64,000 bases of DNA from Candidatus Melainabacteria bacterium. Lineage in GTDB: Bacteria > Cyanobacteriota > Vampirovibrionia > Obscuribacterales > Obscuribacteraceae. The stretch is taken from the NCBI GenBank assembly GCA_003963305.1, contig RXJR01000003.1:113706-177705 (forward strand), given 5' to 3'. A program made the translations under genes and the position numbers. The notes beneath the pieces were generated by a model. It saw only the letters and a list, made by a program, of their open reading frames with translations, made no database searches and had not been told where the DNA came from. Below are positions 6,196-52,018 of this stretch, piece by piece (the stretch's first letter is position 1; every line of letters begins with the position of its first letter).

Positions 6196-6327
6196 TGACG
6201 GACCCGGAGTTTGCCTGTTTCAGCTAAAAGATACAGTATTTCCTTAATGTTCACGAACGATTGGATACAATTATGCCTGAGAAGTCGCCCTGCCAGCTAT
6301 TACCTGGTTTCTGGCTGCTGAACCCAA

Positions 6328-7059
6328 GTGAAACTTGTCTTTGTCGAGGATTACGTGTCCGATAGTTCAACTTTTCAACTCCGGGTCGTTGGTGTCTCCA
6401 AAACTTATGGAGACCATCAGGTCAATGCTGTCAAAGATGTCTCTTTGAGCTTCAGTGCTGGTGAATTTGTAGCGCTGATGGGACCAAGTGGCTGCGGCAA
6501 GTCGACTTTGCTCAACTTGATGGGCGGTATCGACAAACCAAGTGCGGGGAAAGTCTGGTTCGAAGAGCAAGATCTAACAACCATGACTGATGAGCAAACA
6601 ACCAAAATCAGAGGCGCAAAAATCGGCTTCATTTTCCAGTTTTTCAATCTCCTGTCGACACTTACTGTCGTTGAGAACGTTTCCCTGCCACTCGAACTGT
6701 CCGGCAAAGATGAACGCGAATGCAGGCGAGCCGCGACAGAGATGCTAGCGCGCGTTGGTCTTGAAAAACGTTTGAATTTTTATCCTTCGCAGCTCTCGGG
6801 CGGCGAAATGCAGAGAACCGCAATCGCTCGCGCCCTTGTTCATAGACCTTCTCTGATACTGGCCGATGAGCCGACGGGCAACCTTGATAGCGAAAACGGC
6901 ACAGCAGTGCTTGAACTGTTGCAGTCAGTCAACCGCGAGCTCAAGCCGACTATCATCATGGCTACACACAGCCAGGAAGCAGCCAACTACGCAGACAGAA
7001 TTATCGAAGTTCGTGACGGCGTCGTATATGGTGACAAACAAAAATGTTCTTCGAATTGA
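6328..7059 (+). CDS. ABC transporter ATP-binding protein (YbbA/LolD/MacB-ATPase-like)
   Basis: Walker A GPSGCGKSTLLN, signature LSGGEMQRTAIARAL, Walker B LILADEPTGNLD. The exact start is uncertain (GTG at 6328 or a downstream alternative). Overlaps the next gene by 16 nt. Confidence 0.9.
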   Translation: MKLVFVEDYVSDSSTFQLRVVGVSKTYGDHQVNAVKDVSLSFSAGEFVALMGPSGCGKSTLLNLMGGIDKPSAGKVWFEEQDLTTMTDEQTTKIRGAKIGFIFQFFNLLSTLTVVENVSLPLELSGKDERECRRAATEMLARVGLEKRLNFYPSQLSGGEMQRTAIARALVHRPSLILADEPTGNLDSENGTAVLELLQSVNRELKPTIIMATHSQEAANYADRIIEVRDGVVYGDKQKCSSN

Positions 7060-13700: not shown

Positions 13701-14844
13701 ATTCGAGAAGCGGTGCCGAGTTTTGATGAGGATGCTTCTCAATCGTTTTTAGAGTCAAATATTCATTGAGGACCTTGGCGTTTGCGATTTTGGGATCTGT
13801 GCTTCGAATCAAGGGCTGATATATGTCGATGAATTTGAGCCGCTCCTGTTGCGCAAGCCGGCTGAACGCATCAAAGGTCCGATTCGGAGCCAGTTCGATT
13901 GACTGCGCGAGATATTTGGAGGCCACGGAATAATTGCCCTGCACGATCTCGTCATCTGCCATAAAGCTGTAGCAAGTGTTTAGAGCAGGGTGTTGCGGAG
14001 CAAACTTTTTGAAGACAACAATGGCCTCTTCGTAATACTTCTTCGCCAGGTCGAATTTTTTCTCTTTTGCGTAGCTTTGCCCCATAAGAGCCAGCAAAAC
14101 TGCCTGGCTGTCAGGACGGCTTTTTTGGGTTTCAGTAATTTTATTCAGAAGTGGAGTAATATATTTTCTCGCTTCATCTGTATTACCGAGGGCAACCAGG
14201 CATGCGGCGAGGTTCCCCGCAATGTAATCTGCAGTGTTCGAGTCACCGGATTTGGTAGCGATATCAAAGGCTTCCTGATAAGTATCCCGGCCTTCTTTCA
14301 CATTCCCTTGTGCCACCATGATCTTGCCCAGACTCTCCATCTTCGCGGCGATTTGCGGATCTGTGGGAGGTAGTAGCTTCTTGCAGATGTCTAGGGCTTT
14401 GCGCTGGTGGAGTTCAGCTTCGACATAACGGTATTGGTGGCGCAATATTCGGCCGAGAACGTCTTCCGCATCTGCGACTTCCATGGAATCGTTACCACAA
14501 AGCTTTTCATAGTTACTGAGTACTTTGCGGCATAAATCCTCGGCTTTTCTGTTCTTACCGCGATTTTTTAAAAGTTTGAGATAAGCAAACTGGGCATCAG
14601 TTGCTTCTCGTGATTTAGCCCCATAGCGTTTTACAGCCTCGTCAGCATCCTCCTTGAGTTGTGTCTCCAGATCTTTGTCGGACTCTGAAGATGGCGATGT
14701 TGACTGCGATGTGTTCTCTGCTGTGTTTTTGGGACTGTCTCCTGAATTGATTTGCTCACTGGCGTAGGAGTTTTCTGCTGTAGAAAAAAGAGTCAATGAC
14801 GCTAGGACACTGGTCAAAATAACTGACGAAAACTTCAGGTGCAT
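10792..14844 (-). CDS. Giant TPR-repeat protein with C-terminal CHAT (caspase-like) protease domain and N-terminal signal peptide
   Basis: 1350-aa ORF. Signal-like N-terminus MHLKFSSVILTSVLASLTLFSTAENSYA. Many TPR-like helical repeats. CHAT catalytic dyad contexts VVHFSTHGF (His) and LVSLSACKTGLG (Cys), then AGARSILMSLWSVDD. Confidence 0.85.
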   Translation of the reverse strand: MHLKFSSVILTSVLASLTLFSTAENSYASEQINSGDSPKNTAENTSQSTSPSSESDKDLETQLKEDADEAVKRYGAKSREATDAQFAYLKLLKNRGKNRKAEDLCRKVLSNYEKLCGNDSMEVADAEDVLGRILRHQYRYVEAELHQRKALDICKKLLPPTDPQIAAKMESLGKIMVAQGNVKEGRDTYQEAFDIATKSGDSNTADYIAGNLAACLVALGNTDEARKYITPLLNKITETQKSRPDSQAVLLALMGQSYAKEKKFDLAKKYYEEAIVVFKKFAPQHPALNTCYSFMADDEIVQGNYSVASKYLAQSIELAPNRTFDAFSRLAQQERLKFIDIYQPLIRSTDPKIANAKVLNEYLTLKTIEKHPHQNSAPLLESIYKARRQTFGDKSALTSEAALQLAVQLKYMSGHTQPLIGLAEPGILAFAQSLVNPKTKADAEAQVTIAVLGGRDRALDYVIEALLVLAEMKGEEEEFESAQKRLNLAEDCLKARNLTPETNSRNAHSPETLARKLLQLATVWLALGKYHRATELTESAIATISDGKTDSKLKYDAYLQLSNLNLAESDSEAALKNVSIAQAMALKLFGEKSIELIPCYRILSQIKLSTGQYKEAKNYAQEALRCTDLSTSDAIWMRNTTGFCDLAEGRYDSAKFELNQALNFCNDSVNNQAEDRSQFTASSTALAEALIHLGDKEEALQNLDWSLSTDHSNSDTYSLLSSARDCAGIAMVHSLNSEKELAATYALKAASFTDKFLQNGFSQLSFAQQCSFVNVTRQVRSILLNTCTDQEQLSKAYGYIIKWKGLLLETLRSQSAIASLANTSSGATKKSVSELADVRVKLGQMANTGQSQTSEFNLLTETKERLERNLSQITGAQTIADVLTNHDVQWFQSHLQPDQAFLDILTYTSIKDNTEHYALIALRAPAKDSVRSQQNGIYMLDLGQTREINDEISSWRNNITQQISTNNRDAKLSARDIHPDLESNQSLLSAEEYLQLTQKLAHHFILNPELAKFLGPDVTKLWLCPEAAMARTPWNSIGTICGATQFTICEVDSPREFIQITSQQSEPNKTNQLLLAGVGTFRSNDLNDLPGTAREINGIKSEASKAGIECKVLLDSQASKKNVEKKIDSFSVVHFSTHGFARSDSSAQSENRALPAIHFGLMSMMPSIARNPLTDSGLVLAPSEKTSGADEKTAELIASAETRPKWRSMPDSINASNKKLLTNLLTAEEIVGLNLKNCKLVSLSACKTGLGTGLDGQGVLGLRSAILAAGARSILMSLWSVDDEATEQLMQKFYSCLLDPQNPMTEVEALQKAQDYIRSQPQWQAPSYWAGWVIAGDGWQKIREKVPTGR

Positions 14845-29244: not shown

Positions 29245-29386
29245 GGTTGCCGCTCCGATTTGCTTCTTTCGAGCATTGTATAGGCTTTTATCTTGCTATC
29301 CTAAAAGCAAAGAAGTAGTATTCGATTTATATTGTCTCGTTGCTGCGTGATGCCTCACGGTGAGCAATTTTTAATTGGAGTGCCTG

Positions 29387-30532
29387 ATGTTTGACTTTGT
29401 ATTTGAGCGTGCAAGCGAGTCCCTCCTGGGAGTCATCTATCTGTCTCTGGATGAGTGTTTGAGGCTCAACAATAAATGGGTCGGATCGGAGCACGTTTTG
29501 CTCGGTTTGATCAATTCGCAAAATACCGAAGACGACAATTTGGCCGGGCGTGCACTTGCTTCGATGAGCGTTGACTCGAAAAATGCGTTTCAAGAAATTG
29601 AGAATCATCTCCGGCTAAATCCCGATTCTGAGCCAGTCTTCAATGACAGACCTCAGAGCGTCGATGCAGTGGCTAAATTGACCGGCCGCCACGCTGCACT
29701 CGAGCAACCTGCATTCAGTCAAGCAATTGTTGAGGCGATGAAGCGCGCTGAAGAATATTCGGTCTTCTATGGCTCAGAGGAAATTGAACCAGAACATTTT
29801 CTTCTCGGAATTCTAGATCTCAAGGAAGCCGGTGCCATCACCGTCTTTGAAGAGCTGAGCGTTAATCTCGAATTCTTGAGAAAGCAGATCATTCAACTGA
29901 TCGCTGAAGAATCATTTCTCAGAGGCAACATCGGCGGGCTGCGCAGTTCGCTCATTCAAGGGTTAGCCGAGTTTGTCGAAAGACATTATCGTTCAGTCAA
30001 CAGTTTGAACAATTTAGCCCAGCGAAGTGGGCACACACGGCTGCACTTGCCATCACGCAGTGAAATTGTGCACATGGTGGTAATAACGTATCTGAGCGAG
30101 TTTCTCTCTACGCAAGTGTGCTTCCAGCGATATTTGCTCGAAGAGAGCATTCGCAATTTGTCACAGCGTGTCGGCAGCCTTGACCAGGAGACAACCGCCA
30201 CCATCGTCACGAGCGCTGCGCAGAATCTGCGCGCTGAAGTGCGCAGCACGATCGAGCATATGTGGTGCAACGAATATCGCATTCTCTCCACGATGCTTGA
30301 TGAAGCGGAGCATGATCTGATCGGCAGTGTAATCGAAGACCTCTGGTGGGCTCAGAGCGAAGAAATCGCCTTACATGAGTCATTCGCAGAAGCTCTGGAC
30401 GATCATCGTCGCAAGCATCTTCTCAATTTGCAGCAGCGCAGAATCGAAATTTCCTCGCGTCTTAACAAGTTAACAACGCGATTGAATGACACCATCAAGC
30501 AATGCTTCTTGAAGCATCCAATCTCGGCTTGA
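29387..30532 (+). CDS. Orphan Clp N-terminal (Clp_N double repeat) domain protein with helical C-terminal region, no AAA+ module
   Basis: Two Clp_N repeats (VGSEHVLLGLIN and IEPEHFLLGILD), then about 200 aa of helical sequence with no Walker motifs. Start set to ATG 29387, 6 nt after GGAG (29377-29380), rather than the track TTG at 29375. Confidence 0.7.
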   Translation: MFDFVFERASESLLGVIYLSLDECLRLNNKWVGSEHVLLGLINSQNTEDDNLAGRALASMSVDSKNAFQEIENHLRLNPDSEPVFNDRPQSVDAVAKLTGRHAALEQPAFSQAIVEAMKRAEEYSVFYGSEEIEPEHFLLGILDLKEAGAITVFEELSVNLEFLRKQIIQLIAEESFLRGNIGGLRSSLIQGLAEFVERHYRSVNSLNNLAQRSGHTRLHLPSRSEIVHMVVITYLSEFLSTQVCFQRYLLEESIRNLSQRVGSLDQETTATIVTSAAQNLRAEVRSTIEHMWCNEYRILSTMLDEAEHDLIGSVIEDLWWAQSEEIALHESFAEALDDHRRKHLLNLQQRRIEISSRLNKLTTRLNDTIKQCFLKHPISA

Positions 30533-30630
30533 CAGCATTGCGCTGACGCACACAAAACAAAGCTGAACGCACGTGAGAGTGGTCATGTGCATTCACATTG
30601 CATAGAGCGCGGCCGAATCCTGTCCTGAAT

Positions 30631-31095
30631 CTAGATGCGCAGAACGTACGGACATTTCGTACAGAATGCTTTGGCGAATTGAGTCGGATGTCCGTCCATG
30701 TCGAAACCATCGATGACATTGGTACGCAGGGGCGAACCACAGTCAGGGCATTTCAGATTCTCGACGCCGTCCAGAATATCGCGCGCTAAGTTCTCTGCCG
30801 TTTCGGCATCCAGCATATGTGACACCGGCAGTGGAGCGACCGCACTGTGACGTTGCTCCACTTCCTTAAGTAACGCCGGTTCAATGCTCAGGGCTTTCGA
30901 TAATCTCTGTCTGTCTGTGGAACTCAACCATGTTTCGAGACCAGCTTCGAGATCCTCTACTCTTTTGATGGGGAAATTCGCCAGTTCGGCCACATCCAAC
31001 ACAGTCATGTTGCGAATCTCGCGAACTTGCACGAGTCTTCGTGCCAGCGTCGGGGCTAATTTCAGGTTAGTTGGCAGAGGCTTAAATTGTTTCAT
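30631..31095 (-). CDS. XRE-family helix-turn-helix protein with C-terminal zinc-ribbon
   Basis: HTH segment REIRNMTVLDVAELANFPIKRVEDLEAG. C-terminal CPDCGSPL...CTKCPY four-Cys ribbon. Divergent from the 31197 operon with a 101-bp spacer. Confidence 0.7.
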   Translation of the reverse strand: MKQFKPLPTNLKLAPTLARRLVQVREIRNMTVLDVAELANFPIKRVEDLEAGLETWLSSTDRQRLSKALSIEPALLKEVEQRHSAVAPLPVSHMLDAETAENLARDILDGVENLKCPDCGSPLRTNVIDGFDMDGHPTQFAKAFCTKCPYVLRI

Positions 31096-31196
31096 TCTTT
31101 TTTTGTTTGTGACTTGAATTGATTGCGACTAACCAATTTTAGTTGAATTCTGACCCGGCCAGGGTAGATTCAATCAAGATGTAGCAATGTGCGAAA

Positions 31197-32621
31197 ATGG
31201 ATGACATGGAAGAGCCAGTCGAGACCGCCGAAAAGCAGATGGAGCGCCCACAGGAAAGTCAAGCGCTTGAACGTCGCGCCGGCGGTCGCAGCGGGACGCG
31301 GAGAAGCTCAAATACGACCAATGAGCCGAGCCTGATTGCACCCGATGGTGTAAAGAGTTTGATCACTAAGCTTTCGCAGCGTTATTGCAAGGATGGCAGG
31401 CCATTTGCAATTGCTTCTCTCGACATTCTCGAATATGAACAGGTCAGTAATGTTCTTGGTGCCGTTGCTGCCGAACAGCTGGATAGGCTTGGTAAGGTTG
31501 TCTGCACGAACTCACTGCGTGGCAGCGATCGTCTTTGTTTTTTTGAGCCGGGGCATATCTTGATAATTTTGCCTGATACTACGGAAGAAGCGGCCAATAT
31601 TGTCATGGAACGCATTACGCAATCAATCGCATCTGCGAAGCTGCAGCATAAGAACAAACCCCTGCGTGCCAGCGGCGCCTTCCAGGTTGCCGCCAGTGAT
31701 ATCGCTGAGGATGGCGCCGAAATTTTGGCACCAGATACGGAAGCTTTGATGGAATCTATCGGTTACAAATTCGATGCGCAAGATCATCTCTACAATACGC
31801 AGCTTTCATCGATGCGTCTTTTTACCAAAAAGCAACGGCCGTTTTCTGGAAGTTTTTCTGTATGGTCTGATCGGTATGTAAATATCATCACCACTAAATT
31901 AGAGAAGTCCGTTGATAACAGTCCATTGCCGCAAGGAGTTATTTTCATACGTGCTACAGCAGAAGATATGTGGCAAGCCAATCGAACCGTCAATTTGAAG
32001 ATGTTCGAGCTGGCTGATCGAGCCGCTAAGTTTGATCCTGATGCACTGGCTCTGGTGGCGCGGCGTGCCAGAGTGTTGCAGCAGATTGACCACCCAGGTG
32101 TTTCCCGTCTGGTTGATTTCCATACATACGAAGATCGTTGTTTGTACTTGATTGAAAATCAAGTTATCGGAAAACCTCTCGGTAGCATACGCGCTAATCT
32201 GGAAACTGTTTTGGCCTGGGGCGTGCAGTTGTGCAACACCTTGATTTATTTGCAAGGTCTGATGCCGCCTTTGATTCCACCGCCACTTAAGATTGAGAAT
32301 TTTGTCGTTTCCGCAGAGAATCAAATTGTTTTGCTTGATTATGAATTGCCCTATCTACTCAGCCCGTTGATGGTGCAACACGATAGCAGCTCTGAAACAA
32401 ATGCTTCTCCCCTGAGCGCTCCCTACAATCGTTTTGGCTTGGAGAATTTGCTCATGTTTTTGTATGACATGATTGCCAAGTCTGAGCACCACCGTGATCT
32501 CAGTGATTTATTCGACGTTAAAGATTCTGATCGTCTGAGTGAGAAATTGAACAGTCTCTTCAAAATTCGTGCCGAATTGAAGAAGGCTATCGATAAGATT
32601 TCTGCTGGTGCGACAGCCTGA
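31197..32621 (+). CDS. Fusion protein: degenerate GGDEF-like palm domain + protein-kinase-like (pseudokinase) domain
   Basis: FAIASLDILEYEQVSNVLGAVAAEQLDRLGKVVCTNSLRGSDRLCFFEPGHILIILPDTTEEA aligns to the GGDEF domain core, with GGDEF replaced by EPGHI. The C-terminal half is kinase-like (IDHPGVSRLVDF, YLIENQVIGKPL, LIYLQG, PPLKIENFVV in place of HRDLKPENIL, LLDYELPY in place of DFG). Confidence 0.6.
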   Translation: MDDMEEPVETAEKQMERPQESQALERRAGGRSGTRRSSNTTNEPSLIAPDGVKSLITKLSQRYCKDGRPFAIASLDILEYEQVSNVLGAVAAEQLDRLGKVVCTNSLRGSDRLCFFEPGHILIILPDTTEEAANIVMERITQSIASAKLQHKNKPLRASGAFQVAASDIAEDGAEILAPDTEALMESIGYKFDAQDHLYNTQLSSMRLFTKKQRPFSGSFSVWSDRYVNIITTKLEKSVDNSPLPQGVIFIRATAEDMWQANRTVNLKMFELADRAAKFDPDALALVARRARVLQQIDHPGVSRLVDFHTYEDRCLYLIENQVIGKPLGSIRANLETVLAWGVQLCNTLIYLQGLMPPLIPPPLKIENFVVSAENQIVLLDYELPYLLSPLMVQHDSSSETNASPLSAPYNRFGLENLLMFLYDMIAKSEHHRDLSDLFDVKDSDRLSEKLNSLFKIRAELKKAIDKISAGATA

Positions 32622-33811
32622 TGCTCGATTTCACAAAAGTCGTTCAGCAAATCGACTCGATTAGCCGTGATAGTTTTATCGATACTGATGCGGTGCAAGA
32701 AACGATCGATAACGCTCTTGCCGCTCTCGATCGGGCGATTCGTTCACCTGCTGAATTCACGACTCGACTTGATGAAAACGCCGGTTGGGTGCTGTGGCCT
32801 GTTGCGACCCCTCTTGAGGATATTGGAGTCAAACATAGTCTCCCTGTCGCAGACGATGCCTATACGGTGGTCGCTGTGGATGGGTCTCAGATAATGCCCA
32901 GTCATCATGAAGTTCATTCCTGCTATTTGCTAAATGTTGGCATGGCTTTGATAAGTTATGGTGCCAAACTGCCACCACGCCTGGAGACTGTGCCAAAGCT
33001 CTACTCCCGTCCGGAGGATCTCTATCCTCTTGTCGATAGACGGCGCTTGCACATCGATGAGTTGTACGTTTCGCTCGAGCGCACAATCATGGAACTCGAG
33101 ATTTTGACCACAGCTTGCCTGGAAGCAAAGGAAAGAGGATTGCCCGTGCTGGCTCTCTACGATGGTTCGTTGCTGCCCTGGAGTGTGGAGAAATTACCGG
33201 ATGGATATCAGCATACTTATATTCGAAGAATGTCGGAGGCTCTCTCCACTCTCGAACACAATCGAATCCCAATAATTGGTTATCTAAGCCACAGCCGTGG
33301 TGCGGATATTGTCAACTGCTTACGCGTTTTGATCTGTCCCTATGAGACCAGTCAATGTCGAGAACATTGTGGTGACTTAAACGAAGAAGATTTTCCCTGC
33401 TCGAAAGTCTGGCCTCTATCTGACCGTGTACTTTTCAAACCGCATTTGAATTTGAATGAGCGCAGCGCTGTTTTCTTGTCTGGCGCCAGCGTTTCAAAAC
33501 TGCTGCCTCGCGAACACAGGATCTGTTTCAGCTATTTGAACGTCGGTGAGGAAATCGCGCGTCTTGAGTTTCCGCGCTGGCTCATCGGTCAGGATGAGCA
33601 GATGCATGCGGCGATGAGCATGATTTTGTCTCAGTGCCAGAAAGGAATGGGGTATCCAATTTCTCTGGCTGAGTCGCATCACCTGGCCGTCATCAAGGGA
33701 ACGGACCGCGATCAATTTTTTGAACTGATCACGAGGCATCTGCTTACTCTGGGAGTAAGTCAAATCAAGACCAGCCCAAAGCAATCGAAAAAGCGATGGG
33801 GTTTTGTTTAA
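32621..33811 (+). CDS. NurA-domain nuclease-like protein
   Basis: Catalytic-Asp context VVAVDGSQI, then LALYDGSLLPW, IIGYLSHSRGADIV, ERSAVF, and C-terminal ARLEFPRW and GMGYPISLAESHHLAVI, as in NurA family proteins. ATG overlaps the upstream stop (TGATG at 32619-32623). Confidence 0.65.
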   Translation: MLDFTKVVQQIDSISRDSFIDTDAVQETIDNALAALDRAIRSPAEFTTRLDENAGWVLWPVATPLEDIGVKHSLPVADDAYTVVAVDGSQIMPSHHEVHSCYLLNVGMALISYGAKLPPRLETVPKLYSRPEDLYPLVDRRRLHIDELYVSLERTIMELEILTTACLEAKERGLPVLALYDGSLLPWSVEKLPDGYQHTYIRRMSEALSTLEHNRIPIIGYLSHSRGADIVNCLRVLICPYETSQCREHCGDLNEEDFPCSKVWPLSDRVLFKPHLNLNERSAVFLSGASVSKLLPREHRICFSYLNVGEEIARLEFPRWLIGQDEQMHAAMSMILSQCQKGMGYPISLAESHHLAVIKGTDRDQFFELITRHLLTLGVSQIKTSPKQSKKRWGFV

Positions 33812-33816
33812 CGTCG

Positions 33817-34389
33817 TTACTTAGCAGACCCGGCTTGTACTGGCTCTTTTACGTAGTCTTCCGTTGAGAGCAACTTCGCATAGCCAAATCCAAGCGCCGA
33901 CATGAATGCCGCATGTACTTGTTGGGCAGGAATTATCTGTCCATTCAATTCCAGATCTTTTGAAGCACAGGCATCGTGAACGACATTGACTTTGTAGCCG
34001 AAGTCATTTGACGCACGCGTAACAGCATCGATGCACATATGACTCATTGCACCGCAAATAACCACTTCGTCGATGCCGTTCTTGTCGAGAATTTCTTTCA
34101 AATCCGTTTCTCGATATGAGTTTATATGGTGTTTCAATACAACTGCTTCGTTTTCCAGATTTCTCACTCTGTTATTGATTTTGGCTCCTTCACTGCCGGG
34201 GGCGAAAAATGGAGCTTCGGCTGTTGGAAATTCGTGGCGGATATGAACAACCAGGTCGCCCTTTTGGCGTGCCGATTCGAGCAACCTGGCTGCGTTGTCA
34301 GCCGCTGCTTCGATGCCGTGCAATGTCCACTTGCCGCCTGGGAAATAGTCGTTCTGGATGTCGACGAAAATAACTGCCCGTTTACTCAT
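33817..34389 (-). CDS. Isochorismatase-family cysteine hydrolase
   Basis: AVIFVDIQNDYF N-terminus, conserved Lys region and catalytic Cys context VICGAMSHMCIDAVTR. Confidence 0.85.
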   Translation of the reverse strand: MSKRAVIFVDIQNDYFPGGKWTLHGIEAAADNAARLLESARQKGDLVVHIRHEFPTAEAPFFAPGSEGAKINNRVRNLENEAVVLKHHINSYRETDLKEILDKNGIDEVVICGAMSHMCIDAVTRASNDFGYKVNVVHDACASKDLELNGQIIPAQQVHAAFMSALGFGYAKLLSTEDYVKEPVQAGSAK

Positions 34390-34519
34390 GATTTGTCCTC
34401 AAATTGCCGCTGCTGATTCTAGCGCGGACTGCGTTCAAGAACATTGAATCCCGTGTATCGGGCAGCACCGGGTGTTATCATTGCGAACTCTGATTTGAGC
34501 TGCTGAGAGGTCTTAACGC

Positions 34520-38620: not shown

Positions 38621-40354
38621 TTATGGAATGAAATTGGCGAGGTCAGCCAGGAGCGCCGGTATAGAGGTGAGTACGAGCATGACAATCCAGAAAATCGGAG
38701 AATCTCCCTTTTTCAGGCTCAGTAAAAAGCCCAAGGAACCGAACGCCATGAGTGTGAAGATCAGTTTGGCGCTATGCCTCAATACCATAAGCCAGATTGC
38801 ATTAGGCTGGTTCGCAAATACGATAGTGGTCAAAGGTCTGATACCGCTTTTCCCGATCCATTCGAATAGAGGTTTGACTGCCAGCAACTCCTTTGGTCTG
38901 CCGTCTTCGAGTGAGATGAAAAACTGAGCATCTGTATGCGCCCCAATGACCGGCTTTCCATCTTGCTCAAATGGTTTGATGATGAAAACGTTGATCGTTT
39001 GGTGTGCGGCAACGAATTTTACATTGAAGCAGCTTATAGTGCCTGGCTCAGGTTTCTCAGGCTCCATCTTCGCTTTTGAGAACACTAATTCTTTATACAG
39101 GTCAAGTTTCTTTTGCTCAATGTCCTCTCCCGACTTGGTATTACCGTCGGTGACTTGTTTAAAGACAACCAGGTGTTCCTTTTCATCGTATGGATTGAAG
39201 TATTTCCCGACCGCTTCAGCCGTGGTTGGATAACTGTGATTCTTGTCGAAATATGCCTGAACTCGTTCCGAAATCTTCTGCGCTTCACCGGTCAGTACAT
39301 TTTCTGGTGCGCGTGCCTCGAACAGTTCGATGTTTGATTCGACGTCCTTAACGCCGTGCTCTGTTTTTGCCAGGAATATCTGTTTTTGAAATGGGCTGAG
39401 TGCGATCACGTCGACGAAGTCACGTGGATCGCTGAAGAAGAAACGTACCGGAGTTTTGACATTGTCGCCGCCGATCTGAAACTGTGCCGTAGATGCGTCG
39501 AGTAGCTTGAAACCCTTCTCGTGCTCTGCTGACCAGAAGTCGCGGGGAAATGTATCGAAAAGTTGATTTTGTCGCGGCACGATGTTGTAGCCGACCGCAA
39601 CGACAATGGCGATAACGGCCATGACTCCGAAGCGTATGAACATCTTTTTTTGCTTCACTTCAGGAGCTTCTACTTCCTGAACCGGTGCCATGTCGTTTGT
39701 GGACCCAAATACTTTCTCGATAAATTTTTCGAAGGCAGATTGCTCGAGGCTGCCTATTTCGCGTCGGCTGCCGCCTCCACCTCCGCTGTATTCAGGCTTT
39801 TGTGCCAGTTCGTCGAGAGCACTCTTGCGGTTTACTGTGCCGCCTGACCGAGCCCCTTCGCCAGATTGCGTCGGGCGAGGCCCGCCGCCTGTGCGGATGT
39901 CAGGTGGGGCTCGAAATCCACTATCTCTTTCCTGGTCGCGATCTCGTCCCGGTGGTTTGACATTGCGGTCTTCCAACCTCAGACCGGGCATCATACTGGC
40001 GATTTGAAACAGTGCCGTCATCAAAGGATTTTCAGCCGAACCGCCGGAATCGAGCTTTTCTTTTTTCGCTGCTGCTTTCTTGCGCAGGGCAGTTTTTGAG
40101 GGTGGAGCAGCGTAAGACGCATAGCCGGAGCCATCTTCAGGCTCGTTATGTACTCCATAATTCAGGTCAGGCTCTGGCTCATTCCGGTACGACTGCGCGG
40201 GTTGTTTTCGGGGAATCGCCTTGCGCGGCATCGGCATGCTGTTGGGCGACAGTTTCTGATTTGATCCGGTTCCAAACTGCGGCGATTGACCAGGCTGACC
40301 TGAGCCGGTCATCTCGTGCTCTTCGTCTTCGTAATCGTATGGTCCGTTCGACAT
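38621..40354 (-). CDS. Hypothetical membrane protein with disordered Pro/Gly/Arg-rich N-terminus
   Basis: 577-aa ORF. Disordered region of about 230 aa, TM FGVMAVIAIVVAVGYNIV, a soluble domain of about 270 aa, and C-terminal TM helices. No recognised domain. Confidence 0.5.
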   Translation of the reverse strand: MSNGPYDYEDEEHEMTGSGQPGQSPQFGTGSNQKLSPNSMPMPRKAIPRKQPAQSYRNEPEPDLNYGVHNEPEDGSGYASYAAPPSKTALRKKAAAKKEKLDSGGSAENPLMTALFQIASMMPGLRLEDRNVKPPGRDRDQERDSGFRAPPDIRTGGGPRPTQSGEGARSGGTVNRKSALDELAQKPEYSGGGGGSRREIGSLEQSAFEKFIEKVFGSTNDMAPVQEVEAPEVKQKKMFIRFGVMAVIAIVVAVGYNIVPRQNQLFDTFPRDFWSAEHEKGFKLLDASTAQFQIGGDNVKTPVRFFFSDPRDFVDVIALSPFQKQIFLAKTEHGVKDVESNIELFEARAPENVLTGEAQKISERVQAYFDKNHSYPTTAEAVGKYFNPYDEKEHLVVFKQVTDGNTKSGEDIEQKKLDLYKELVFSKAKMEPEKPEPGTISCFNVKFVAAHQTINVFIIKPFEQDGKPVIGAHTDAQFFISLEDGRPKELLAVKPLFEWIGKSGIRPLTTIVFANQPNAIWLMVLRHSAKLIFTLMAFGSLGFLLSLKKGDSPIFWIVMLVLTSIPALLADLANFIP

Positions 40355-46000: not shown

Positions 46001-49000
46001 ATGAAGCTCTGTCTGCGATGCAACCAATATTTTGAGGATGGCATCGAGCTTTGTCCGATGGACACTTCTACTTTGGAAGCGGTAGGAGAACATCCATTGA
46101 TTGGGGCCCTGATCAACGATCGATACGTGGTTGATTCGGTCATAGGAAAAGGTTCGAGCGGAATCGTCTATAAAGCCACCCGGCTCCTGATGGGGCGCGA
46201 GGTGGCTGTAAAAGTGTTGCACAGTTACCTGGGCGCCGAAGCAGGAGCTCTGGACCGGTTTTTAAGAGAAGCCAGAGCTGCCAGCCGGCTTCGTCATCCG
46301 CATATCATCAATATCTGGGAGTCTGGAGTAACCGATGACGCCCAGCCGTATTTCGTTATGGACTATCTGGAAGGCATGACGCTTGCGGACCTGGTCAGGC
46401 AAAAAGGCTATCTGCATGCCGCACGCGCCATGCCAATCATTACCCAGATTTGCGAGGCCCTGAGCGAAGCGCATCGCCAGAACATCATTCATCGTGACAT
46501 CAAGCCCGAGAACATCGTGCTAGAGACGAACGAGGGCGATAACAATTTTGATGACTATGTGAAAGTGCTCGACTTCGGTATCGCCGACGCACCATCAGGC
46601 ACGTCCGGAGTGCCCAAGCAGAAGACAGCCGCCGGCAGCCCAGCCTATATGAGCCCTGAACAGTGCCAGGGATTCGAACTCGATCAGCGCAGCGACATAT
46701 ACTCGCTCGCTATCGTTATCTTTGAAATGTTGACCGGCATGCGACCATTTGCGGCCGACGACGTCATGAAGTTGTTCTACATGCACGTCAGCCAGCCGCC
46801 GCCGACTCTCAGCAGCATGAGATCAGACCTGCGCTTCCCCATGCAGGTAGAACTCGCTATCGCCAAAGCCCTGGCAAAAAATCCCGATAACAGACAGCAG
46901 AGTATTAAAGAATTCCAGAAAGAGTTGGAAGACGCATTTGCCAGCTCTGACATGGGGTCAGGCAAGAGAGAAAGCGTAACAGTCGACTTGTTCTCGGTGC
47001 CCGTCGTAGACCGTTTGATGGATGGCGGCGGTGGCTCGACCAGCACAGGTTCTCATAATTTCTTGCCCGGACCTGAAGATTGGGAAGAGCCATCCGAAGA
47101 GGCAGTAATGCCTTCCACTCCAGCCGCTGCACCAGCAGCAAAATCGGATTCATCCGATGTCTCGGCCGCAGTAAATCGCCTCTTAAAGTCCGCCAAGCGC
47201 GCTTCTGAAGCTGTGAAGCAAGAAGATGTAGGCACCTGGGCAAGAGATGTTCTCACTCGTCATGAAGAGCAAGGTGGAGCAAAGAAAGATTCCCCTCAGC
47301 CTCTAAAAGCTTCAGGTGGTCAAAGCCCGCCTGAAAACAGTGGTCCTGAAGTCTCCAACTGGGCCCATAAGGTGTTGAGTCGTCAAAACACCGGTGAGAT
47401 GAATGTGCCGGGCAACAATCAGGCAGGCGGTGCTGCAAAAGCTCCTGCTCAGGCTTCACCAAATGCATTGCCGGCGAATTCTTCGCCTCAACCGGGTGCG
47501 GCTTCAAAACCTGCTCTCTCGGCTGCTTCTACTCCACCTGCGGCCAAAGCTCCGCAACCAGGTCAGCCCAACAATCCTGCTGCCAGGGTGCCGACTGGTC
47601 CGGGGTCCGCTGCTCCTCGTCCTGGTCTGGGCTCCTCCACCTCTGCGGAAGCGCAGTCAATGCAGACTAAGCAGGGCAACAAAATCGCCAAGCCAATTGA
47701 ACTCCTGAAAGCAAAATCGGCTGCTGAAGCAGCAAGACGTGGATCCGGTGAACTTCCCAAAGAAGTCGCCGAGGAGTCCGGTGCCGCTATTCCCCTGTCA
47801 CTTAAAGCCGCAGAGCAATTTCAGAGCAATTCCGCCGGCTCCGGCATGCCATCAGATTCGGTGGCGAGACCGCTGGCAAAACAAGCCGGTAGTCTTGAGT
47901 CAGATCTCGACAGCCGGCTTGACGGAGTTAAGCCGGGAGCTGCTAAACCTGTTTCAACCAGTTCATCTGCCCCGGGTGCCAGGGCTGATGCCAGCCGTCC
48001 TGCACCGCCTGTAACACCAGGTAGCGGCGCTGCACCAAAATCGAACGCACCTCCACAAGCGGCTGGAGCGCAGGCGAGACCAGGTGCTCCTGCCGGCGCA
48101 GCACCAGCTTCGCCTACTGCTGCCGGTCTGAAACCAGGCGGTGCGGCCACGTCACCGGCTCGACCTGGAGTGCCGGGAGCGAACACGGCAAGACCTGGTC
48201 AGCCACCTACCGCAAGCGCTCAGAGACTACCTGGTCAGCCAGGCGCACCGGCGCAGGCAAAACCGGCTGCGTCCTTGCCGAACGCACCGCAAGCGAAACC
48301 GAACATGTCTTTGCCCAACGCGCCGCAAGCGAAACCAAGCACGTCTTTGCCCAACGCGCCGCAAGCGAAACCGAACACGTCTTTGCCCAACGCACCGCAA
48401 GCGAAACCGAGCACATCTTTGCCGAACGCACCGCAAGCGAAACCGAGCACATCTTTGCCGAACGTACCGCAAGCGAAACCGAGCACATCTTTGCCGAACG
48501 CACCGCAAGCCAAGCCGAGCACGTCTTTGCCGAATGCACCGCAATCGAGACCGAGCACGTCACTTCCCAATTTGCCCGCTCAAACATCAGCTGCGACGCC
48601 GATAGCGCCGACACCAGTACAGCCTGCAGGCAACAGCGAAACGGTAAGTTCCGAGCGACCAGCTTTTGACCCGAGCCGATTCGAGCAGCCCGTCAACAGG
48701 CCTGCAGAGTCGCTCAATCCGTTTGCACAAGCAATCGACGGACTGCTTGATGCCGCCATCATGCCCAAGACACAGGAAGATGTGCGTCGGTCTGCCAACA
48801 AACTAAAGCAGATGGAGGCACCACCCGGAAATGCTCCCGATCCACTCGATCCGAGTCGATTCGAGTTGCCTATAAACAGTAGAGCATCATTTGATCCATC
48901 GCGGTTCGAAAATCCGATCAATAGAGAAGCACTGGCCGATGCCGCCGCTGCTGATAATTCGCGGTTCGACCAGCCCGTCAATAAAGGTTTTATATCGGGT

Positions 49001-50494
49001 AGTGCCGCCGGCAGTAAAATGCTTGGTGCAAGTGAGTCCGAGAAGAAGACGATTGAGCCTGCCGCCAGCACTTCTCTCGACGTTAATCGTTTTGAGCATC
49101 CAATCAACCGAGCGGAAGAGTCGCTCAATCCTTTTGCGCAGGCAGTCGATGGATTGCTTGATTCGGCAAGAATAAAGCCTGAGCCCAAACCTGTTACAGC
49201 CACGCCTTCTGACCTCGGTCAAACAGCGGCTGCTGTTGGTAAGCCACCCGATGCAGCGGCTATCGAAGCTCTTGATAGCACGGCAGAGGAAGATCGGGTA
49301 CATGATGCCGTCAGCCGTTTGATCGAAGCCGCCAAGCGCTCGCCTGAACCGACGCAGAAGCCCGAGGTTCTGAACAAAAAGATAGAGGCGGTCAAGAAAA
49401 AGATCGAAGCTTTGAAAGCTGCAGATGTAGCAAAGCCGATTTCAACAGGGCTGCCACCGGAAGCAGTGCCACCAGCACCGGTGCCCTCAGCGCCAGCGCC
49501 GACACCAACGCCTGCGCCTTTCGTTCCGGGACCAACCGATTCCAATTCACTTTCAGATGCTGTTAACAGGCTGCTGGAAGCCGCTCAGCGTCAGGAGACA
49601 ACTACTAATGCTCCGGCTTTGCCACCGCAAATGGTGAACCCGTTCGCTGATGCATACTCCAGCCCCGCACCACCAACGCCACCACCGGCACCGGCCGTGT
49701 ACGGCGGCACCAGCCCCAGCACTGCCAGCAGCAGCTCACTTACGAACGTGCCTGCTTCCAATCCGTTTGACGCCGCTGCCAGCACTTCGATGGTCAATCC
49801 ATTTGCTCAGGTCGCATCACCCGACCCGAGAACAAGTGGCAGCTTCATGCCGTCTGCCAATGTCCCCGGACCAGCCGCGCCCGATCCGAACAAGAAACCG
49901 CCCGAAGGCAGTGCTTTCCAAAATTATGTCAGCGCTCCGACAGATCGCATGACCAGAGCTGCCGAGTTGATCAATAACGCGATCAAATCAAGCAAAACAC
50001 CTGAAGTCGCTCAAGACTATTACTCCGGGTTTAAGAATGATCCCAAGCAGATACAGGCTGAACGTGCTGAGACCCTGAAGAAGAGCCGCGCTCGTGTAAG
50101 AAGGAATTTTCAGGGTCCGCCGAAGCCACCACTATGGGTGGCACTAATTCTGGCTTGTCTGGTGGGCGGATTCGCTCTCTGGTATGGCGGCTTCCTGCCC
50201 TTCTTCGGTCCACCGAAGTCTTCAGCGCCTCTCAGTCTTGATGCTTATATCAAGCAAGGTAAATATGAGAAGGCTCGTGAGCTTTTGGAAGCTAAAAAGA
50301 AAGCCGGTAATCTCTCAGCTGCCGAAACAGAGAAGATGAATACCGTCTATTATCAGCTCGGTTTGAAAGAAGGCAAGGAAGAGAACTATCAAGATGCTGT
50401 CAAAGACCTGAAGATGGTTTCTCGCAAATCTGACCTTTATCCTTCAGCAGCCGCCAAAATTCGTGAATTCAAAAAGAAAATGAGCGATCTATAG
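46001..50494 (+). CDS. Ser/Thr protein kinase (Hanks type): N-terminal Cys motif, about 1000-aa disordered linker, TM helix, short TPR-like C-terminal domain
   Basis: MKLCLRCNQYFEDGIELCPMD. Kinase motifs GKGSSGIVYKA, VAVKVL, HRDIKPENIVL, DFGIA, GSPAYMSPEQ. TM LWVALILACLVGGFALWYGGFL. C-terminal YIKQGKYEKARELLE. Confidence 0.9.
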   Translation: MKLCLRCNQYFEDGIELCPMDTSTLEAVGEHPLIGALINDRYVVDSVIGKGSSGIVYKATRLLMGREVAVKVLHSYLGAEAGALDRFLREARAASRLRHPHIINIWESGVTDDAQPYFVMDYLEGMTLADLVRQKGYLHAARAMPIITQICEALSEAHRQNIIHRDIKPENIVLETNEGDNNFDDYVKVLDFGIADAPSGTSGVPKQKTAAGSPAYMSPEQCQGFELDQRSDIYSLAIVIFEMLTGMRPFAADDVMKLFYMHVSQPPPTLSSMRSDLRFPMQVELAIAKALAKNPDNRQQSIKEFQKELEDAFASSDMGSGKRESVTVDLFSVPVVDRLMDGGGGSTSTGSHNFLPGPEDWEEPSEEAVMPSTPAAAPAAKSDSSDVSAAVNRLLKSAKRASEAVKQEDVGTWARDVLTRHEEQGGAKKDSPQPLKASGGQSPPENSGPEVSNWAHKVLSRQNTGEMNVPGNNQAGGAAKAPAQASPNALPANSSPQPGAASKPALSAASTPPAAKAPQPGQPNNPAARVPTGPGSAAPRPGLGSSTSAEAQSMQTKQGNKIAKPIELLKAKSAAEAARRGSGELPKEVAEESGAAIPLSLKAAEQFQSNSAGSGMPSDSVARPLAKQAGSLESDLDSRLDGVKPGAAKPVSTSSSAPGARADASRPAPPVTPGSGAAPKSNAPPQAAGAQARPGAPAGAAPASPTAAGLKPGGAATSPARPGVPGANTARPGQPPTASAQRLPGQPGAPAQAKPAASLPNAPQAKPNMSLPNAPQAKPSTSLPNAPQAKPNTSLPNAPQAKPSTSLPNAPQAKPSTSLPNVPQAKPSTSLPNAPQAKPSTSLPNAPQSRPSTSLPNLPAQTSAATPIAPTPVQPAGNSETVSSERPAFDPSRFEQPVNRPAESLNPFAQAIDGLLDAAIMPKTQEDVRRSANKLKQMEAPPGNAPDPLDPSRFELPINSRASFDPSRFENPINREALADAAAADNSRFDQPVNKGFISGSAAGSKMLGASESEKKTIEPAASTSLDVNRFEHPINRAEESLNPFAQAVDGLLDSARIKPEPKPVTATPSDLGQTAAAVGKPPDAAAIEALDSTAEEDRVHDAVSRLIEAAKRSPEPTQKPEVLNKKIEAVKKKIEALKAADVAKPISTGLPPEAVPPAPVPSAPAPTPTPAPFVPGPTDSNSLSDAVNRLLEAAQRQETTTNAPALPPQMVNPFADAYSSPAPPTPPPAPAVYGGTSPSTASSSSLTNVPASNPFDAAASTSMVNPFAQVASPDPRTSGSFMPSANVPGPAAPDPNKKPPEGSAFQNYVSAPTDRMTRAAELINNAIKSSKTPEVAQDYYSGFKNDPKQIQAERAETLKKSRARVRRNFQGPPKPPLWVALILACLVGGFALWYGGFLPFFGPPKSSAPLSLDAYIKQGKYEKARELLEAKKKAGNLSAAETEKMNTVYYQLGLKEGKEENYQDAVKDLKMVSRKSDLYPSAAAKIREFKKKMSDL
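48239..48598 (+). repeat. About 9-10 in-frame tandem 36-bp repeats encoding LPNAPQAKP(S/N)(T/M)S within kinase 1
   Basis: Unit starts read at 48275, 48311, 48347, 48383, 48419, 48455, 48491, 48527 and 48563, with degenerate flanking copies. Confidence 0.95.
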
Positions 50495-50515
50495 TTTCGC
50501 GATGCAGTGCTTTCA

Positions 50516-52018
50516 ATGAAACTGTGTTTGCTCTGTAGCAGTAAGTATGATGATACTGTCTCTGTCTGTGAGCGAGATGGCGCCAAGCTCGTAATCGCCG
50601 GCAGTGACAATTTGATCGGTACAGTTGTAGGCGAAAAGTATCATATCGACGAATTAATAGGCAAAGGTTCTGTTGGCCGTGTTTATAAAGCACACCGGGT
50701 GGCAGACAATTCCTTCGTGGCTGTAAAAGTTTTGCGTGAAAATCTGAGTAATGACAAAGAAGCGCTGGCTCGTTTCAAGCGCGAAGCGCAGATGCTGAGC
50801 ATTATTGAGCACCCCAACATCGTCGAACTCTATGATTTCGGACAGACAGCAGGCGGCGAGCCATTTTTTGCGGCTGAATATCTCGATGGAAAGACGTTAG
50901 CGACTATAATCGCAGAGCGAAGATGCTTGACTGTGTCTGAGGCTCATCCCATTTTTTCTCAGGTTTTTAGCGCTCTGGCAGAGGCTCACAGCCATGGTTT
51001 CATTCATCGTGATATTAAGCCGACTAATATCATTCTTGTTGAAAATCAAGATCAGCCACTGGTAAAAATTCTTGATTTCAGTCTTGCTAAGCTGCCACCG
51101 CTGGCGGTGGAAGATCGTGTCACCGAGGACGGTATGTTGAGAGGCACTCCTGCTTACATGAGCCCCGAGCAGTGCCAATCAATGGAGGTTGATAACCGCA
51201 GCGATATCTACTCTCTTGCTGTTGTCTTGTTTGAGAGTTTGACAGGTCTGCGTCCGTTCTCCAATAAAAATTCCGTTATCACCATGCATCAGCAGATGAA
51301 CGACATGCCACCGACTTTGATGGCAGTTCGTTCTGACCTGCAATTTTGTGAAGAGCTGGAAGTTTTGATCGCGCAATGTCTTTCTAAGAAACCGGAAGGG
51401 CGACCCGCGTCAGTAGAAGAGTTCCGGCAGAAGTTCGAACAAGCCTGCGAAGCACAAAAAAGGATTGCTGAACTCGAGATTAGCTCTGGTTATGCTGAAC
51501 GACCTCGGGTTAAAACGTTGGACAAGCTCACGCCCCTGGAGGCATTCCGAGAAGCTGATGAACGCCGCAAAGAGCTTGACAAGATTCTTGCTGACGAGTC
51601 AAGCGCTCGCAAGCTTACTGAATTACGCGCTGAAAAGATTCGTGCCGACGAGAGTGAGTCCGAAACAATTCGCATGACGACTGCGGAGCTTGAGTCGCAA
51701 CGAGTCACTGCCGTTAATGAGATGGACAACAGGGACAAGAACAGGGCTGAGAACAGAGTTGAGGGCAAGGCTGAGAACAGAGCTGAGAACAGACTTGACA
51801 GGGCTGTCAACGGGTTGAACAGCGTACCGGCTGAACATGAGCCCGGCTTTGATCTCACAACTGCACCAGTGCATCTGCGCCTTGCATCGTTTGTTCTGTC
51901 GATGTGGTGGAGCCCCGTCGGGCGTAAGGTCATCCTGGGCTTGCTTGTTTTTGTGCTGCTGATAATACTTGTCACTACACTCCTGCTTACGCCTATTCCT
52001 GGCCCTTCTACGCCCTAG
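50516..52018 (+). CDS. Ser/Thr protein kinase paralog 2 (C-terminal TM anchor)
   Basis: MKLCLLCSSKYDDTVSVCERDGAKL. GKGSVGRVYKA, VAVKVL, HRDIKPTNIIL, DFS in place of DFG (ILDFSLAK), GTPAYMSPEQ. AENR-type short repeats. TM ILGLLVFVLLIILVTTLLL. Start set to ATG 50516 by homology with the paralogs (track GTG 50507). Confidence 0.9.
   Translation: MKLCLLCSSKYDDTVSVCERDGAKLVIAGSDNLIGTVVGEKYHIDELIGKGSVGRVYKAHRVADNSFVAVKVLRENLSNDKEALARFKREAQMLSIIEHPNIVELYDFGQTAGGEPFFAAEYLDGKTLATIIAERRCLTVSEAHPIFSQVFSALAEAHSHGFIHRDIKPTNIILVENQDQPLVKILDFSLAKLPPLAVEDRVTEDGMLRGTPAYMSPEQCQSMEVDNRSDIYSLAVVLFESLTGLRPFSNKNSVITMHQQMNDMPPTLMAVRSDLQFCEELEVLIAQCLSKKPEGRPASVEEFRQKFEQACEAQKRIAELEISSGYAERPRVKTLDKLTPLEAFREADERRKELDKILADESSARKLTELRAEKIRADESESETIRMTTAELESQRVTAVNEMDNRDKNRAENRVEGKAENRAENRLDRAVNGLNSVPAEHEPGFDLTTAPVHLRLASFVLSMWWSPVGRKVILGLLVFVLLIILVTTLLLTPIPGPSTP

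Follow-up and report, generated by a model that had tools for sequence, protein, structure and literature searches.

In the 64,000-nucleotide stretch of DNA analysed here (positions 113,706 to 177,705 of the forward strand of contig RXJR01000003.1 in assembly GCA_003963305.1, from a Candidatus Melainabacteria bacterium; henceforth referred to as ‘the window’), a gene for a nuclease of the NurA family is directly preceded by a gene that encodes a GGDEF-like domain fused to a protein kinase-like domain (henceforth ‘the fusion’), and next to them, on the opposite strand, lies a gene for a helix-turn-helix (HTH) and zinc-ribbon protein (henceforth ‘HTH/Zn’). We tentatively read this as a chromosomal, vertically inherited DNA-processing locus of the Obscuribacterales, non-photosynthetic relatives of the cyanobacteria, in which the fusion would be an accessory adaptor that responds to cyclic di-GMP (c-di-GMP) and modulates a NurA working independently of HerA, with HTH/Zn as the local transcription regulator. 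A preliminary description of this DNA had named three open reading frames (ORFs) of 154, 474 and 396 amino acids, a TGATG stop/start overlap at 32619-32623 and the peptides LDIL, EPGHI, PPLKIENFVV, LLDYELPY, VVAVDGSQI, LALYDGS and GYPISLAESHHLAVI in their translations; all of these were recovered, the ORFs with the same coordinates and strands (Table 1). These are genuine genes and no product of chance: dozens of species have kept them, with a non-synonymous divergence (dN) of 0.06-0.12 and saturated synonymous sites; the fusion itself is under purifying selection among close relatives, with dN in that same range, saturated synonymous divergence (dS) and a dN/dS of 0.016 for the pair L004/L005.

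Named homologs assign the window to a bacterium of the Obscuribacterales (Melainabacteria/Vampirovibrionia), a soil relative of the cyanobacteria. For comparison we collected loci (numbered with the prefix L) from gene-neighbourhood look-ups, from a scan seeded with NurA in which a single genome stood for each species and which yielded 76 Obscuribacterales loci and four outgroups, and from phmmer searches of the window proteins against the ORFs of these loci. The Obscuribacterales loci were inspected over ±7 kb around NurA and the source contig over the 64-kb window. Conservation of motifs was counted in 52 representatives of the fusion family, in 21 orthologs of HTH/Zn, and in 20 orthologs of NurA together with HerA-linked outgroups.

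The first half of the fusion is a GGDEF domain. Residues 56-157 match PF00990 with E=1.2e-5 and 25.6 bits (cut-off 23.8 bits), to which NCBIfam adds only partial diguanylate-cyclase similarity. When a family profile made from 24 diverse members was compared with the sequences in the PDB, its positions 13-141 matched GGDEF domains (3ign at 3e-11, PleD at 1e-6), and phmmer took the fusion itself to 3ign at E=4e-6. An AlphaFold2 (AF2) model of the fusion, with a mean predicted local distance difference test (pLDDT) score of 72, was matched by Foldseek to the GGDEF domain of 3ign (TMt 0.68), a structure described as crystallised with c-di-GMP. The degenerate GGDEF domain claimed previously is thus confirmed by Pfam, by the family profile and by Foldseek. 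The metal site that had been read from the peptide LDIL fared less well: the peptide is there, but its aspartate D76 is kept only in close relatives of the window (8 of the 52 representatives). The GG[DE]EF motif occurs in none of the 52. Judged from these motifs, the fusion cannot be a diguanylate cyclase, GG[DE]EF being gone and the metal-binding aspartate mostly gone.

The allosteric I-site, by contrast with GG[DE]EF, is nearly invariant (96-100%): R108 is found in 51, D111 in all and R139 in 50 of the 52 representatives, in a family whose mean column identity is 29%. The RxxD motif stands five residues ahead of the A-site, a register confirmed by the alignment to 3ign, and R139 lies 28 residues past D111, the same spacing as that of R390 past D362 in PleD. 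R359, D362 and R390 of PleD, the counterparts of R108, D111 and R139, form the primary allosteric I-site, and 3IGN, WspR and PelD are given as proteins that bind c-di-GMP at this site (PMC7288161). Given an I-site conserved to 96-100% and a GG[DE]EF motif that is missing from all 52 representatives, we predict that the fusion is a c-di-GMP receptor and binds through its intact I-site; c-di-GMP receptors of the GGDEF type are recognised by just this pairing of a dead A-site with a kept I-site. It is therefore more likely that the GGDEF half senses c-di-GMP via the I-site than that it acts as a generic ‘palm’. Sensing of GTP via the A-site was also considered and is unlikely, as the A-site residues are not conserved.

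The second half of the fusion resembles a protein kinase. Positions 195-349 of the family profile match protein kinases in the PDB (TLK2 at 4e-12, WNK1/3, CDPKs and CDK6), and Foldseek aligned the AF2 model with the Hanks-type kinases Nek7, WNK and PknB at E~1e-9, and also with PknA. Across the family the Gly-rich loop and the alpha-C glutamate are absent, PPP stands in place of HRD, the aspartate of the DFG position is found in 30 of 52 representatives, and the VAIK position holds K or R in 38 of 52. Because the HRD/DFG, Gly-loop and alpha-C Glu motifs are lost or not conserved, this half is classed, on its motif columns, as a pseudokinase; the kinase-like second half without HRD and the DFG aspartate that the preliminary description had proposed is supported by the PDB profile search, by Foldseek and by these columns. 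Five positions are invariant in all 52 representatives, namely W223 and R226 (of the WxxRY motif), D257 and W259 (DxW) and D307. The family is small and restricted to its lineage: when 1.84 billion cluster representatives were searched, 42 clusters reached E<=1e-30, and the full-length members number roughly 60. A fusion of a pseudokinase with a GGDEF domain was not found in the literature searched. In L070, the family profile recognises no more than the pseudokinase half (its positions 187-445) ahead of NurA, at 6210-6995 of that locus; this is a naturally truncated form, or else the GGDEF half has decayed.

The identity of the 396-aa protein as a member of the NurA family, also claimed beforehand, is borne out by a match to PF09376 over the full model (positions 2-254 of 254; E=1.7e-27, 96.9 bits, cut-off 21 bits) and by conserved acidic residues, and all NurA homologs listed carry PF09376. 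D87, D181, E351 and H353, the candidate catalytic residues, are invariant across the order and in the HerA-linked outgroups. Also invariant, including in the HerA-linked homologs of Thermoanaerobacterium and Armatimonadota, are C239, C246, C250 and C260 (CPYE.S.CR..C......EDFPC), a Cys4 cluster that may be a Zn or Fe-S site; to our knowledge, no such cluster has been described in the characterised NurA proteins. The AF2 model of NurA (pLDDT 85) has its best Foldseek matches in Argonaute PIWI, EndoV and RNase H at template modelling (TM) scores of 0.2-0.5. Folds of the PIWI, EndoV and RNase H type are those that NurA was originally said to resemble. The modelled fold is accordingly RNase H-like in kind, and a likeness specific to solved NurA structures is unsupported by the top 50 Foldseek matches, among which no solved NurA occurs; likewise, no NurA chain was matched when the NurA family profiles were compared with the PDB sequences.

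The nearest homologs of this NurA outside the order are those of Thermoanaerobacterium and of a metagenome-assembled genome (MAG) of the Armatimonadota (31-35% identity). They are encoded in operons of the order cinA-recA-recX-nurA-HAS-barrel-herA-mre11-rad50, with the HAS-barrel gene and herA directly downstream of nurA in all four outgroup loci. Since the nearest homologs share the conserved residues and the Cys4 cluster and sit in herA-mre11-rad50 operons, the Obscuribacterales NurA descends from a bona fide HerA-linked NurA lineage. Homologs of HerA, HAS-barrel, Mre11 and Rad50 were found neither within ±7 kb of NurA in 77 Obscuribacterales loci nor anywhere in the 64-kb window. The absence of HerA or any other ATPase next to NurA, as previously described, is therefore upheld by a homolog search of window and loci; the term ‘orphan’ that had been applied to this NurA is backed for the neighbourhood only, at these two scales. 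One article reports both an endo- and an exonuclease activity for NurA, on which HerA has a modulating effect (PMC4641729), and this speaks for an activity independent of HerA.

This descent bears on a second reading of the locus, in which NurA would carry out canonical HerA-NurA end resection from dispersed genes, its true partner being a HerA (and Mre11/Rad50) encoded at another place in the genome, with the fusion and HTH/Zn only tuning expression; it is compatible with the other readings, and we consider it unlikely. The closest outside homologs all come from herA-mre11-rad50 operons, the Obscuribacterales proteins have in common with HerA-linked proteins not just the Cys4 cluster and the conserved residues but also a basic C-terminal tail (SPK..KKR), and inspection covered ±7 kb only. 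Set against this are the lack of herA near NurA in 77 genomes and in the window, although it is adjacent in the outgroups, and the segment YPLVDRRRxHIDELYVSLER of NurA, which is strongly conserved within the order and differs from the HerA-linked outgroups.

The linkage between the fusion and NurA is strict. Wherever it occurs, the fusion lies directly 5' of NurA. The 38 loci in which both gene ends were visible (three of the starts were taken from the NurA scan or phmmer results) all have a distance from stop to start between -8 and +54 nt, and in 23 of them the two genes overlap; a metagenome search seeded with the fusion found NurA immediately downstream in 7 of 7 true family members. The survey of neighbourhoods shows, then, that the operon-type coupling noted in the window is conserved in other genomes. 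The claim of ‘co-translation and stoichiometric partnership’ stands in part: the coupling is kept, but the partnership is not an obligate one, given that about 36 of 77 genomes have no fusion and that no NurA column tracks it. Of the 77 informative Obscuribacterales genomes about 41 carry the fusion, and the remaining 36 or so still have NurA and HTH/Zn. Where the fusion is missing, the start of HTH/Zn is roughly 25-200 bp from that of NurA, with the exception of L035, in which TPR proteins and a DUF6745 protein (L035:2508-6961) stand directly upstream of NurA, where the fusion would be. A neighbour-joining tree of NurA contains basal lineages that do not have the fusion, one large clade that does, and a clade of Obscuribacter proper that does not. 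The simplest history suggested by this distribution is a lineage-specific insertion of the fusion, with one gain plus losses and vertical inheritance. In one locus a gene for a DAO-family oxidoreductase (L077:2715-5733) separates HTH/Zn from the fusion.

The locus belongs to a syntenic block found throughout the order, with the sequence ispE, ksgA, CNNM/CBS, DUF4013, surE, a gene with Clp_N only, HTH/Zn on the minus strand, the fusion where present, and NurA on the plus strand; past NurA the block continues with a variable set (isochorismatase, GNAT, DUF1189) and then a CofH-like radical SAM gene. These flanking genes are housekeeping genes, and the locus is neither mobile nor a defence island. 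In the window the Clp_N gene (29375-30532, plus strand) encodes a 385-aa protein with two Clp_N repeats and no AAA+ ATPase domain, is convergent with HTH/Zn, and keeps its position order-wide. In the clade of Obscuribacter proper an extra gene lies between the Clp_N gene and HTH/Zn (L017:5306-6355), in which the DNA-binding domain of O6-methylguanine-DNA methyltransferase is fused to a beta-carbonic anhydrase. The Obscuribacterales block was also seen on contigs labelled Planktothrix, Drouetiella, Bryobacterales, Flavobacterium psychrophilum, Proteobacteria, Actinobacteria, Oculatellaceae or Chloroflexota (L009, L006, L013, L034, L035, L038, L047, L053 and L054), labels that are probably errors of MAG binning or labelling.

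The same setting weighs on a defence reading, which the preliminary description had raised among others. NurA would there be the effector nuclease of an anti-phage or abortive-infection module, unleashed by a protein that senses nucleotides; we regard this as highly improbable. Components of the HerA and NurA type, as in Sir2-HerA, are known from defence systems time and again, as are palm domains that sense nucleotides, and PADLOC gave a weak match of the fusion to the kinase of PD-T4-6 (7.7e-5). The PD-T4-6 matches of the fusion (7.7e-5 to 0.01) are, however, explained by generic kinase similarity; PADLOC had no model for NurA and nothing better than 0.02 for HTH/Zn, so that neither of these two rose above noise. 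The flanks are housekeeping genes, inheritance is syntenic and vertical across the order, and the fusion follows the NurA tree, the opposite of a patchy, island-borne pattern. With no PADLOC support for NurA and a locus in a vertically inherited housekeeping block, the defence-module claim finds no support, and a defence island is rejected on the PADLOC and synteny evidence.

Throughout the order it is the third gene, HTH/Zn, that has accompanied NurA from the start: it is found divergent beside NurA in nearly every Obscuribacterales locus, the pairing outlasts local rearrangement in L052, L062, L070 and L073, and the two genes form an ancestral conserved pair. Its Pfam matches to HTH and zinc-ribbon families are all below threshold (HTH_25 at 18.5 against 24.6 bits, HTH_31 and HTH_3 lower still), and a profile of the orthologs gave weak matches to XRE proteins in the PDB (DdrO at E=0.013, 434 Cro at 0.74). 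C116, C119, C145 and C148 are invariant in the 21 orthologs, which are 44-75% identical. The intergenic promoter that the genes share is, we infer, most likely under the control of this candidate XRE-HTH/zinc-ribbon protein. In the intergenic region of the window TTGAAT-16 nt-TAGATT can be read by eye and inverted repeats are weak; a scan of 30400-34500 for consensus promoters and terminators gave fewer matches than shuffled sequences, with none in the divergent intergenic region. Elsewhere in the order, a perfect 10-bp palindrome, ATAGCGCTAT within AGTATAGCGCTA, is present between HTH/Zn and NurA in the fusion-lacking loci L017, L028, L034, L037, L039, L040, L044, L048, L075 and L076, and in its stead L056, L058 and L067 have GTATAC...GTATAC inverted repeats. 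The palindromes and inverted repeats of the L017-type and L056-type loci are candidate operators for the HTH/Zn protein.

Taken together, solid comparative evidence stands behind the anatomy of the locus: its architecture, the loss of catalytic motifs, the conservation of the I-site, the strict linkage of the genes, a setting in the core genome and the lack of HerA in the neighbourhood. From this anatomy we infer the mechanism: that the fusion binds c-di-GMP and touches NurA physically, in which direction regulation runs, and what part HTH/Zn plays. A new gene would have been inserted directly ahead of NurA in one large sub-clade and would be co-translated with it. Its product would be a two-domain adaptor, whose GGDEF domain would be unable to make c-di-GMP and should bind it via R108-x-x-D111 and R139, and whose pseudokinase domain could act only as a binding or scaffold module. 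Occupation of the I-site by c-di-GMP would alter the conformation or oligomeric state of the adaptor, the altered adaptor would modulate the activity, stability or localisation of NurA, and NurA-dependent processing of DNA ends would thereby track the cellular c-di-GMP state. We regard this mechanism, in which the fusion is accessory to NurA, as possible rather than probable; a stricter version, with a HerA-independent NurA switched by c-di-GMP through a dedicated receptor-pseudokinase adaptor, we think improbable.

Two things argue for the adaptor: the coupling is strict, long-lived and often overlapping, and the fusion was never seen away from NurA. Several observations weigh against it. NurA does not need the fusion, because some 36 of the 77 genomes have NurA but not the fusion, and these include the basal lineages as well as Obscuribacter proper. 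No column of the NurA alignment is specific to the lineages that carry the fusion. Across the order the fusion diverges much faster (17-37% identity) than NurA (44-60%) or HTH/Zn (44-58%), and such a difference from NurA is unusual for the partner in a tight complex. HerA is possibly encoded elsewhere in the genome, and the HTH assignment of the regulator is based on matches below the Pfam cut-offs. Finally, a regular-expression search of the comparison loci found no ORF with GG[DE]EF, a negative that covers one region repeated over genomes and is uninformative on c-di-GMP synthesis. Some of the same facts favour an account in which the fusion is co-transcribed with NurA but functionally independent of it, a c-di-GMP effector or pseudokinase scaffold of another pathway that was inserted into a permissive gap and borrows the promoter, with NurA working just as in species that have no fusion. 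The constrained positions of NurA are identical in lineages with and without the fusion, half of the order does without it, it evolves at a pace quite unlike that of NurA, and the gap between HTH/Zn and NurA takes unrelated genes, such as those for the TPR and DUF6745 proteins of L035 and the oxidoreductase of L077. We nevertheless find independence somewhat doubtful: all seven members recovered by the fusion-seeded search stand next to NurA, and an overlap, or a gap of <=54 nt, is kept down to 17-20% identity of the fusion, which is hard to account for without selection for coupled expression.

Table 1. Positions of the three genes and of their domains, motifs and residues in the window.
Feature	Position	Strand	Description or basis
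HTH/zinc-ribbon gene	30631-31095	-	154 aa; XRE-like HTH at residues ~17-80 and C-terminal Cys4 zinc ribbon (candidate assignments)
Divergent intergenic region	31096-31196		101 bp; presumed promoter and operator
Fusion gene	31197-32621	+	474 aa; disordered N-terminus, dead GGDEF, WxxRY linker, Hanks-type pseudokinase, C-terminal helical tail
GGDEF-like domain	31329-31706	+	Fusion residues ~45-170; PF00990, phmmer to 3ign, Foldseek
I-site RxxD motif, R108-G-S-D111	31518-31529	+	Alignment to RQSD of 3ign
Degenerate A-site, EPGHI replacing GG[DE]EF	31545-31559	+	Alignment to GGEEF of 3ign
R139, third I-site residue, equivalent of PleD R390	31611-31613	+	Alignment to R of ‘ERIRE’ in 3ign
Pseudokinase domain	31863-32372	+	Fusion residues ~223-392; profile and Foldseek matches
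TGATG stop/start overlap of fusion and NurA	32619-32623	+	Sequence
NurA gene	32621-33811	+	396 aa; RNase H-like nuclease family; PF09376
NurA candidate catalytic residues	D87 32879-32881; D181 33161-33163; E351/H353 33671-33679	+	Invariance
Cys4 cluster inside NurA, C239/C246/C250/C260	33335-33400	+	Invariance, including HerA-linked homologs

The rest of the 64-kb window holds ordinary signalling and metabolic genes, and scans of it for Rfam elements and tRNAs returned none. Two tandem, apparently active Hanks-type Ser/Thr kinases of 1497 and 503 aa are encoded at 46001-52018 on the plus strand, the first of them in a stretch of raised G+C content (0.55-0.58 as against ~0.48-0.50 elsewhere). 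Upstream of the syntenic block, both on the minus strand, are genes for a 1106-aa ResIII/DEAD helicase-like protein (2875-6195) and a 1350-aa TPR-CHAT protein (10792-14844). For a 577-aa protein encoded at 38621-40354 on the minus strand, Pfam gave nothing at E<=1e-5; the sequence looks charged and of low complexity in the N-terminal half and hydrophobic at the C-terminus.

Almost all that is understood of NurA concerns its part as the nuclease in the resection machine that it forms with HerA, and a NurA that is conserved throughout an order with no HerA adjacent to it raises the question of what it does alone or with new partners. Should the proposed mechanism be true, it would constitute a direct link, undescribed in the literature searched, between c-di-GMP signalling and a nuclease that processes DNA ends; the Hanks-type pseudokinase scaffold would be an undescribed class of output for degenerate GGDEF receptors that bind through the I-site; and a lineage-specific gene of the uncultured Obscuribacterales would have been given a functional hypothesis, of which there are few. 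Should the c-di-GMP reading be false, the locus would consist of a conserved housekeeping nuclease and a co-transcribed signalling gene.

Considered singly, each component belongs to a known kind, the nuclease being a NurA, the receptor a GGDEF domain of the I-site type, the kinase-like half a Hanks-type pseudokinase and the regulator XRE-like. What is new is that a GGDEF domain is fused to a pseudokinase, that this fusion is coupled exclusively to NurA, and that NurA lacks an adjacent HerA order-wide. The literature searched contained nothing relevant on NurA with GGDEF, on NurA in Melainabacteria or on NurA as an orphan, and in it the combination is undescribed, in agreement with the preliminary description, which knew of no system with this architecture. 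The closest relative of the nuclease is the NurA of the HerA-NurA(-Mre11-Rad50) operons of Thermoanaerobacterium (L079-L081), which has the same full PF09376 domain, VDGSQ, DGS/T and EAH motifs, Cys4 cluster and length of ~395 aa; in contrast to these operons and to the HerA-NurA systems of Deinococcus and Thermus, the Obscuribacterales NurA has HTH/Zn as its neighbour and, in half of the species, the fusion. The GGDEF half is likened to receptors of the PelD type, which bind at the I-site and in which a GGDEF fold has likewise lost GG[DE]EF and kept RxxD and the downstream arginine. Known degenerate-GGDEF receptors control polysaccharide synthesis, proteolysis targeting or motility. Unlike PelD-type receptors, the fusion has a Hanks-type pseudokinase as its output and a nuclease as the product of its linked gene, and its c-di-GMP binding is a prediction from sequence. 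With Hanks-type kinases (PknB, PknA, WNK and Nek7 among the top Foldseek matches) and bacterial pseudokinases it has the bilobal kinase fold in common, and it differs from Hanks-type kinases in being joined to a GGDEF domain and in having lost the catalytic motifs. HTH/Zn, finally, is weakly alike over its N-terminal ~65 residues (E-values 0.01-0.7) to XRE repressors of DNA-damage regulons such as Deinococcus DdrO, and is divergent from a DNA-processing gene; unlike DdrO it bears a C-terminal Cys4 zinc ribbon, and no protease partner of the IrrE/ImmA type was seen, so that the resemblance to DdrO suggests a lead to follow and not membership of that family.

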